DNA from: an uncultured Thermotogae bacterium
GTDB lineage: Bacteria; Bipolaricaulota; Bipolaricaulia; UBA7950; UBA9294
Direction of reading: 5' to 3'
Length of the DNA: 64,000 nucleotides
Assembly (NCBI GenBank): GCA_964354815.1
Contig: CAYHBG010000001.1
Span: forward strand, 10,803-74,802
In this document: positions 34,020 to 34,851 of the stretch, in pieces
How positions within the stretch are numbered: position 1 is the stretch's first letter
How the letters are laid out: every line of letters begins with the position of its first letter
Translations under genes and position numbers: made by a program
The notes under the pieces: model-generated
What the model was told of the DNA's origin: nothing
Seen by the model: the letters and a program-made list of their open reading frames with translations, nothing else
Database searches by the model: none

Positions 34020-34448
34020 CTACGGGGTGAGAGTCCCCGAGGTGAAGACGGTCCAAGCGCCGGACGCCCGGAAGTTGCCGGTCGTCTTGATGGCGTCGGT
34101 GTTGCTCGCGGTGATCGAGGCGTCCATCAGGCCGGGGCCGTAGGCGACGAGCATCTCGAACGAGGTGCGGTCGTCGGCGTACAGGTAGATCTGGATGGCG
34201 TCCGAGTTGGCCGCGTTGACCTGGGCATCGCCCTGGATGTCGAGGAGACCCGCGAAGGTCCCCTGGATGTCCTTGAGGCCGACCAGGTAGGTCTTGTTCG
34301 TGTCCCCGAAGACGGTCGAGTCCACGAAGTCACGGTTGAGGTTGAGGGTCCACTCGGTCTTGTTCACGACCTTGACCCCGGACCCCTTGGGGCCATTGAG
34401 GTAGATCGCGCCGTTCTTGCCGTGGAGGGCGGTACCGGGCTGTGCCAC
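34020..34448 (-). CDS. major tail (tube) protein, copy 2
   Basis: GTG 34448; 142 aa; paralogous to the adjacent gene (LHGKNGAI...NKTEWTLN...QGTF.GLLD..GD...LYA.D...ASN.DA...GNFRA.G.WT). Confidence 0.6.
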   Translation of the reverse strand: MAQPGTALHGKNGAIYLNGPKGSGVKVVNKTEWTLNLNRDFVDSTVFGDTNKTYLVGLKDIQGTFAGLLDIQGDAQVNAANSDAIQIYLYADDRTSFEMLVAYGPGLMDASITASNTDAIKTTGNFRASGAWTVFTSGTLTP

Positions 34449-34473
34449 GGGGCATTCCTTTCAATGAGAAGGA

Positions 34474-34851
34474 CTAGATGGTCCAGGTCCCGGCAGCTCG
34501 GAAGTTGCCGGTGCATCGGACCGCGTCCACGTTCGAGGCGGTGACGCTGGCGTCGAGGTAGGCGGGCCCCTCTCCAACGAGGGTCACACCGTCCTCGGCG
34601 TACAACTGGAACCAGTAGGCGCTCCCGTCCGCGTAGAGCAGGGCGAGGTCGCCATTGGCGTCGAGCAGTCCCGAGAAGGTCCCCTGCACGTCCCGCAGCC
34701 CGGCCGCGTAGACCTTGTTCCCGTCACGGAACGTGGTCACGTCGGCATAGTCGCGGGACATGTTCAGCGTCCACTCGGTCTTGTTCGTCACCTTCTGGTA
34801 GTCGATCCAGATGGCACCGTTCTTGCCGTGGAGCTTTCCGTCAGCCGCCAT
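34474..34851 (-). CDS. major tail (tube) protein, copy 1
   Basis: ATG 34851 with AGGAG RBS; 125 aa; shares about 45% identity by eye with the downstream paralog. Confidence 0.6.
   Translation of the reverse strand: MAADGKLHGKNGAIWIDYQKVTNKTEWTLNMSRDYADVTTFRDGNKVYAAGLRDVQGTFSGLLDANGDLALLYADGSAYWFQLYAEDGVTLVGEGPAYLDASVTASNVDAVRCTGNFRAAGTWTI

Follow-up and report, generated by a model that had tools for sequence, protein, structure and literature searches.

Tandem tail-tube paralogs in an uncultured siphovirus and the possible specialization of one copy

In long-tailed phages, the tail tube is nearly always a homopolymer. The closest known systems to the gene pair described here are found among actinobacteriophages, of which clusters AM, AU, BI, CC, DJ, and EL carry duplicated major tail protein genes, for instance gp18/gp23 of Arthrobacter phage Giantsbane, gp17/gp19 of Microbacterium phage Damascus, and gp17/gp19/gp20 of Microbacterium phage DizzyRudy (bioRxiv 10.1101/2020.01.10.891226; PMC11080557; PMC10652937). 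DizzyRudy (cluster EL) has three annotated major tail genes rather than two; their products share a tube-like N-terminal domain of ~215 aa and differ in their C-terminal extensions. A literature search found no functional study of the duplicated major tail proteins of actinophages. The initial annotation of the sequence described here stated that siphoviruses normally have one tube protein, which is broadly true, with these six clusters as documented exceptions.

Other routes to more than one tube subunit have also been described. The two SPP1 subunits, gp17.1 and gp17.1*, are reported to arise from one gene by frameshifting and to have an identical core (Auzat et al., 2008, as cited in PMC5717097). 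Tubes of solved structure are held together, between subunits as well as between rings, by long loops and termini, and polymerization is abolished when these are deleted (T5 pb6, PMC5717097; P74-26, PMC10034513; JBD30, PMC11445458). Tube-fold paralogs that gained new roles, as initiator rings, Dit, terminators, or fused pseudo-hexamers, are known only from ancient and highly diverged cases. Here, we describe a pair of adjacent tube genes, A and B, that are still similar to each other.

The tail module and its two tube genes

The window, i.e., the whole 64,000-nucleotide stretch that was analyzed, carries on its minus strand a textbook siphovirus module, for which a PHROG scan gives the order terminator, A, B, P112, chaperone, and tape measure protein (Table 1); the scan of the neighboring genes found no sheath gene in the tail module. 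GC content is uniform (65–69%) and no tRNAs were found in the window. The protease and capsid genes are closely preceded by a glycosyltransferase gene and a giant ORF with a Laminin_G_3/ConA-like domain. No isolated phage shows similarity in DNA sequence. The closest tube proteins of isolated phages, those of roseophages CRP-406/701 and phage DSL-LC06, are 27–31% identical, and each of these phages has one tube gene. "Major tail protein 2" of Roseobacter phage CRP-701 was rejected as a precedent, as this phage has a single tube gene and the label mirrors that of Pfam Phage_tail_2. The window holds the tail module of an uncultured siphovirus that probably infects Actinomycetota, a host that is probable because the three genome matches are MAGs of a Lysinibacter sp., an unclassified Actinomycetes bacterium, and a Solirubrobacterales bacterium.

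Table 1. Positions of the features discussed, in the window and in other loci
Feature	Sequence	Position	Strand	Basis	Remarks
ORF of 2622 aa, Laminin_G_3/ConA-like domain	window	41982-49850	-
Glycosyltransferase gene	window	40010-41278	-
Head maturation protease	window	38712-40013	-	PHROG profile
Major capsid protein	window	37375-38751	-	PHROG profile
Head-tail adaptor	window	36399-37316	-	PHROG profile
Neck1/tail completion protein	window	35294-36016	-	PHROG profile
Tail terminator	window	34861..35280	-	phrog_123 and phrog_347	139 aa; directly upstream of A
Tube paralog A	window	34474..34851	-	ORF	125 aa; the derived, trimmed copy; proposed minor/specialized tube-fold component
A–B spacer	window	34449..34473	-	sequence	25 nt; carries B's ribosome-binding site GAAAGGAA
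Tube paralog B	window	34020..34448	-	ORF	142 aa; ortholog of relatives' single tube gene; proposed bulk tail-tube subunit
GC-rich hairpin	window	33953..34002	-	folding	13-bp stem, loop GCCCCUCCCGGCUG; immediately after B's stop codon
P112	window	33598..33936	-	position, conservation	conserved 112-aa protein between B and chaperone
Tail assembly chaperone	window	33251..33619	-	phrog_344	~122 aa; GTG at 33619 with its own GAAGGAG SD
Tape measure protein	window	23454..33029	-	ORF and position	3191 aa
HNH-like ORF between A and B	L013	2023-2559	-
HNH-like ORF between terminator and tube gene	L064	about 790-1316	-
Divergent tube paralog	L078	2623-3102	+		between terminator and B-type gene
Partial third B-like fragment	contig L003/L088	1-99			at the contig's end
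DizzyRudy major tail genes	L084	5783-9803

Gene A starts with ATG behind the ribosome-binding site AGGAG, and gene B with GTG behind GAAAGGAA. Because the spacer between them contains no hairpin, A and B are most likely co-transcribed. By BLASTP the two proteins have 71 of 134 aligned residues in common (53% identity, 67% positives, E = 2e-46), which is far beyond chance. The initial annotation had located both ORFs correctly, and the five motifs that it listed as shared all occur in both proteins when these are aligned; the identity of about 45% that it gave was too low.

That these are two paralogous tube genes in tandem, as had been proposed, is borne out by the BLASTP alignment together with PHROG matches, tube-fold models, and position in the tail module. 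The major tail protein profile phrog_1407 matches A (6e-7) and B (4e-9), and a second one, phrog_10528, matches B (8.1e-11). Pfam PF06199 (Phage_tail_2) gives A 15 bits, below its gathering cut-off of 23.8, and has no match to B, so that tube membership at the sequence level rests on the PHROGs. The AlphaFold models of both proteins have the tube-protein fold (a β-sandwich with a long protruding hairpin) and resemble solved siphophage and tailocin tube proteins. With Foldseek, the B model (AF2, pLDDT 69.4) matches 8qhs (E 9e-5) and the R4C tube 8gtb (E 7e-4). The fold matches in the tube-paralog structure search also include Pvc5 (6j0n), the Pam3 tube initiator (7yfz), and Hcp2-Hcp3 (9vnd). 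Chains A and B of Sf11 PDB 9occ, considered as two tube proteins, are both gp24 and were rejected. Finally, both genes lie where a siphophage tube gene is expected, downstream of the tail terminator gene and ahead of those for the chaperone and the tape measure.

The gene that follows B, P112, is conserved in all paired and single-gene loci and matches no PHROG or Pfam family. It is not detectably tube-like and was rejected as a third tube paralog (hhalign probability 0.8%), and it has the lowest GC3 of the module (0.72–0.82). P112 and the next ORF are unlikely to be a G/GT frameshift pair, as no slippery heptamer is present and the next ORF starts at a GTG of its own, behind its own SD. The tape measure protein has no Pfam match at E ≤ 0.01; at 0.15 nm per residue, its fully extended form would span ~480 nm. 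Visual inspection picked out an HEVGHAL (HExxH) motif in it, as well as a ParB/Srx-like DGNHRLAVARRLG motif.

Relatives and the history of the duplication

Metagenome matches number 799 for B and 319 for A. Relatives were surveyed in 80 IMG/VR loci that had been retrieved with B and were scanned by tblastn. An A-type gene lies immediately upstream of the B-type gene in about 50 of the 80, and in these paired loci the A-type genes are 63–76% identical to A and the B-type genes 72–87% identical to B. A B-type gene stands alone in 31 viral loci, which are more distant (62–79% identical to B), and in the three Actinomycetota MAG loci, too, the terminator is directly followed by a B-type gene with no A-type gene beside it. 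From this distribution, the A–B pair is conserved but clade-specific, and no accident of one genome.

The spacer between A and B measures 11–26 nt in 47 of 51 paired loci (full range 11–526 nt), and a fused A–B ORF was found in none of the 51, each having a stop codon and a spacer. In single-gene loci the tube gene starts 13–88 nt after the terminator, with the exception of L064, L067, L068, and L069. Hidden divergent paralogs in the single-gene loci were rejected: the gaps are no longer than 13–88 nt, and the 527-nt gaps of the four exceptions hold an HNH-like ORF on the opposite strand. This homing endonuclease ORF (~178 aa) is found immediately 5′ of the B-type tube gene, between terminator and tube gene in the four single-gene loci just named, and between A and B in three paired ones (L013, L039, and L048); it could drive the exchange of tube genes between lineages. 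Two further contigs are unusual. IMGVR_UViG_3300028802_000007 (131 kb) has two separate tube loci, L099 and L118, and may represent two related genomes or a chimeric assembly; the contig of L003/L088 has a partial third B-like fragment at its end.

In related loci, the tube genes are followed by homologous giant ORFs of 1600–2900 aa, and tape measures across the whole clade have ~1600–3200 aa. With 10-kb flanks, tape measures have 2188–3191 aa in paired loci (n = 6, median 2655) and 986–2308 aa in single-gene loci (n = 14, median 2082; p = 0.003), a comparison in which the ranges overlap and the paired genomes form one clade, so that it is not independent evidence. Flanks of 6 kb are useless as a discriminator, since in both classes the ORF runs off the flank beyond 1600 aa.

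When a neighbor-joining tree is rooted on the roseophage proteins, the A copies group in a single clade, which is sister to B plus the single-copy forms, and the latter are paraphyletic to B. In a tree of concatenated terminator, tube, and P112 sequences, all paired genomes fall in one clade. One single-gene locus, L052, is placed inside that clade with a bootstrap of only 4–35%, and a secondary loss of A in L052 is not established by such a placement. In addition, the deeper-branching locus L078 has, between its terminator and its B-type gene, a paralog ~35% identical to A, which hints at an older or independent duplication. The trees appear to fit equally an old duplication followed by losses and a single duplication followed by acceleration of A.

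Differences between A and B in structure and expression signals

Over 49 paired genomes, pairwise dN/dS has a median of 0.245 in A and 0.234 in B, and dN of A is 1.3 times that of B. Judging from these ratios, A and B are both functional and under purifying selection. Covariation of A and B distances in a mirror-tree analysis depends on the sample (r = 0.36 in 33 genomes, 0.82 in a subset of 16) and was set aside as uninformative. At 16 diagnostic positions, where A and B are each conserved and differ from one another, single-copy proteins share the state of B at 12 and that of A at 1. A is therefore the derived copy, and B has the form of the single tube gene.

A retains nearly all invariant core residues of the family and has three deletions relative to B: (i) the G-x-K-G-x-G loop, where the first long β-hairpin turns; (ii) 3–4 residues of a later loop; and (iii) the C-terminal tail, i.e., the last ~8 residues. 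In the models, the hairpin loop deletion is seen as strands 6–16 and 19–34 of A vs. strands 12–17 and 31–43 of B. By analogy with the solved tubes, the deletions in A would remove elements that are expected to mediate polymerization.

The expression signals of the two genes also differ. A good Shine-Dalgarno (SD) sequence, defined as a duplex of ≤ -7 kcal/mol and counted over non-redundant upstream regions, precedes 94% of B genes, 92% of terminator genes, 88% of single-copy tube genes, and 85% of both P112 and chaperone genes, vs. 45% of A genes. Essentially no SD is present at 31% of A genes vs. 0–9% of the others. In at least 15 related loci the ATG of A abuts or overlaps the terminator stop codon (ATGA), and the overlap therefore implies that A may be translationally coupled to the gene of the terminator, a six-copy protein, in loci that have no SD. 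Codon usage was compared in 65 paired loci and separates A from B (p = 6e-14): capsid genes have a GC3 of 0.92 and a capsid-likeness of +0.085, and B is close to them (0.89 and +0.025), whereas A (0.81 and -0.15) is closer to the terminator (0.81 and -0.24) and the tape measure N-terminus (0.81 and -0.13). Within the window, GC3 differs in the same direction by a smaller gap (B 0.944 and capsid 0.953 vs. A 0.896 and tape measure 0.881), and the SD asymmetry is weaker than the clade average, A having AGGAG and ATG and B starting with GTG. These data suggest that B inherited the signals of a major structural gene and that A is made in smaller amounts. The weak SD and codon usage of A could instead reflect faster evolution or a foreign origin.

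B is also set apart by a GC-rich hairpin that follows it (Table 1). The 96-nt hairpin region has a minimum free energy of -44.4 kcal/mol (z = -2.95). A hairpin is present at the same place in ~51 non-redundant loci, in which the stems differ in sequence and keep their pairing, although a MAFFT/RNAalifold alignment misaligned the 3′ arms and yields no usable covariation count; the loop GCCCCUCCCGGCUG hardly varies within the paired clade. Its placement is after B and after the single tube gene of relatives, and not after A, and the A–B spacer is too short for a hairpin of this kind. The hairpin has no Rfam match and no U-tract. Since GGAGG occurs in its 5′ arm and CCUCC in its loop and 3′ arm, alternative pairings are possible. 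It is a candidate attenuator or mRNA-stability element that would mark the 3′ end of the tube gene.

Possible roles of A and B and comparison with known systems

The duplicate had initially been taken to imply a heteromeric tube, a specialized terminal ring, or alternative usage. A being derived, trimmed, and lower in its expression proxies, the comparative evidence leans toward the ring and away from an equimolar hetero-hexamer. The reading that we favor, with a probability of about 45%, assigns the bulk tube to B and takes A for a low-copy specialized tube-fold component, most likely a head-proximal ring between the last B ring and the terminator. B would carry on the function of the ancestral single tube gene and would polymerize as hexameric rings around the giant tape measure, giving the bulk of the tube. 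A would keep the tube β-sandwich core, minus the hairpin tip loop, the short loop, and the ~8-residue C-terminal tail; it would be produced in smaller amounts, often coupled in translation to the upstream gene of the six-copy terminator, and its ring, in the position proposed above, would adapt or stop the stack. We infer the difference in copy number, the formation of a ring by A, and its position in the tail; the head-proximal place is proposed because of gene order and the frequent coupling to the terminator gene. A literature search found no solved siphophage in which a tube paralog forms a dedicated ring under the terminator, and the equal dN/dS of the two copies would count against an asymmetric model.

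The equal dN/dS would sit more easily with a heteromeric tube, in which A and B are used in equal amounts, either in A3B3 pseudo-sixfold rings or in alternating A6 and B6 rings, as the unfused counterpart of T5 pb6 and P74-26. The tandem genes, with their 11–26-nt spacer and no hairpin between them, suit the co-expression that such a tube would call for; however, the asymmetry in SD and codon usage speaks against an equimolar need. The duplicated tube domains of T5 and P74-26 give pseudo-hexameric rings, and the P74-26 tail is extremely long (PMC5717097; PMC10034513), but the 51 paired loci contain no A–B fusion. Giant tape measures are likewise a feature of the present clade, with the longest in paired genomes, and this greater length would also fit a structural role of A along the whole tube. 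On the other hand, the difference in length stems from one clade and is a single evolutionary event, and since single-gene relatives encode tape measures of 1600–2300 aa, a B-type protein alone can apparently build a very long tube. Separate tube-fold paralogs do make 3+3 rings elsewhere, as in the distal tail proteins of Nocturne116 (PMC13595954) and in Bacteroides Hcp2-Hcp3 (PDB 9vnd; PMC13035841). Taken together, we regard a heteromeric tube, the main rival of the favored reading, as unlikely. Somewhat more doubtful still is its specific form, in which A3B3 hetero-hexameric rings would make this clade a duplicated, not yet fused intermediate on the way to the T5/P74-26 tubes; the intermediate would have arisen in phages with giant tape measures (2200–3200 aa).

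A could also be a shorter subunit that is incorporated at random and sub-stoichiometrically among B, like gp17.1 and gp17.1* of SPP1, and that tunes flexibility or surface while either form alone suffices. The lower expression proxies of A fit this arrangement, as does its lack of the C-terminal tail and loop residues of B; however, the SPP1 forms come from one gene and have an identical core, whereas 47% of positions, core strands included, are not the same in A and B. A possible loss of A near the paired clade (L052, L046/L075) would suggest dispensability, but such losses lack phylogenetic support at bootstraps of 4–35%, and the long retention of A under purifying selection in ~35 distinct genomes points to a specific role. 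We consider random incorporation improbable. Lastly, tube proteins trigger some host defense systems, and a role of A off the virion, as a decoy against tail-tube-sensing defenses or as an assembly factor for B, is a purely speculative and very improbable proposal to which the DSR2-related entry 8ygm among the fold matches, the trimming of expected polymerization elements, and the faster evolution of A lend some color, but A lies inside the structural operon between terminator and tube gene, keeps its core residues, and has no known anti-defense signature that we could find.

The proposed division of labor, with B as the bulk subunit and A as a specialized ring, may be relevant to the assembly or capping of very long tails. 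With A and B still 53% identical, single-copy relatives at hand, and dozens of environmental genomes, the pair offers a tractable system for the first steps of tube-protein specialization. For annotators, the bulk tube protein of this clade is likely the product of the downstream gene.

Among known systems, the duplicated genes of the actinophage clusters resemble A and B in that both are found in siphoviruses of Actinomycetota with two or three paralogous major-tail genes per tail module, and the degree of divergence is comparable (42–51% identity among DizzyRudy gp17/gp19/gp20 vs. 53% for A/B). They belong, however, to another protein family (hhalign probability 0.05%), and tblastn found no homolog of A or B in AM/AU/BI/CC/DJ/EL phages among 50,697 phage records. 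The actinophage duplicates have 255–586 aa, C-terminal extensions, and other genes between them, whereas A and B are short, adjacent, and differ by loop trimming. The former also co-occur with a capsid-protease fusion, while in the window the protease-like and capsid matches are on separate ORFs (Table 1).

T5 pb6 and gp93 of Thermus phage P74-26 are single fused polypeptides that form trimeric pseudo-hexameric rings (PMC5717097; PMC10034513), in contrast to the two separate genes described here; the copies in the fused type are 16% identical, and the expression proxies of A and B argue against their use at 1:1. SPP1 also has two tube subunit species, one of them longer at its C-terminus, but A and B are two distinct genes that each have a start codon and an SD of their own and are diverged throughout their length. 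The small tube proteins of the TP901-1/GTA type (RcGTA g9, roseophage R4C, and Listeria monocin MttP) are each encoded by one tube gene, unlike A/B. Tube-fold paralogs used as a low-copy or mixed ring are represented by the two-Dit 3+3 ring of Nocturne116, multi-Dit rings, T4 gp48/gp54, the tube initiators Afp5/Pvc5, and Hcp heterohexamers (PMC13595954; PMC13035841). Those specialized rings occupy the baseplate or tip end of a tail or are parts of secretion systems, whereas A is encoded beside the terminator, and A is far closer in sequence to its tube protein than they are to theirs. The A/B pair is an independent instance of a recognized, unexplained duplication, in the small TP901-1/GTA-like tube family; with these precedents its novelty is modest and lies in the direct adjacency of the two genes and the clear asymmetry between the copies.
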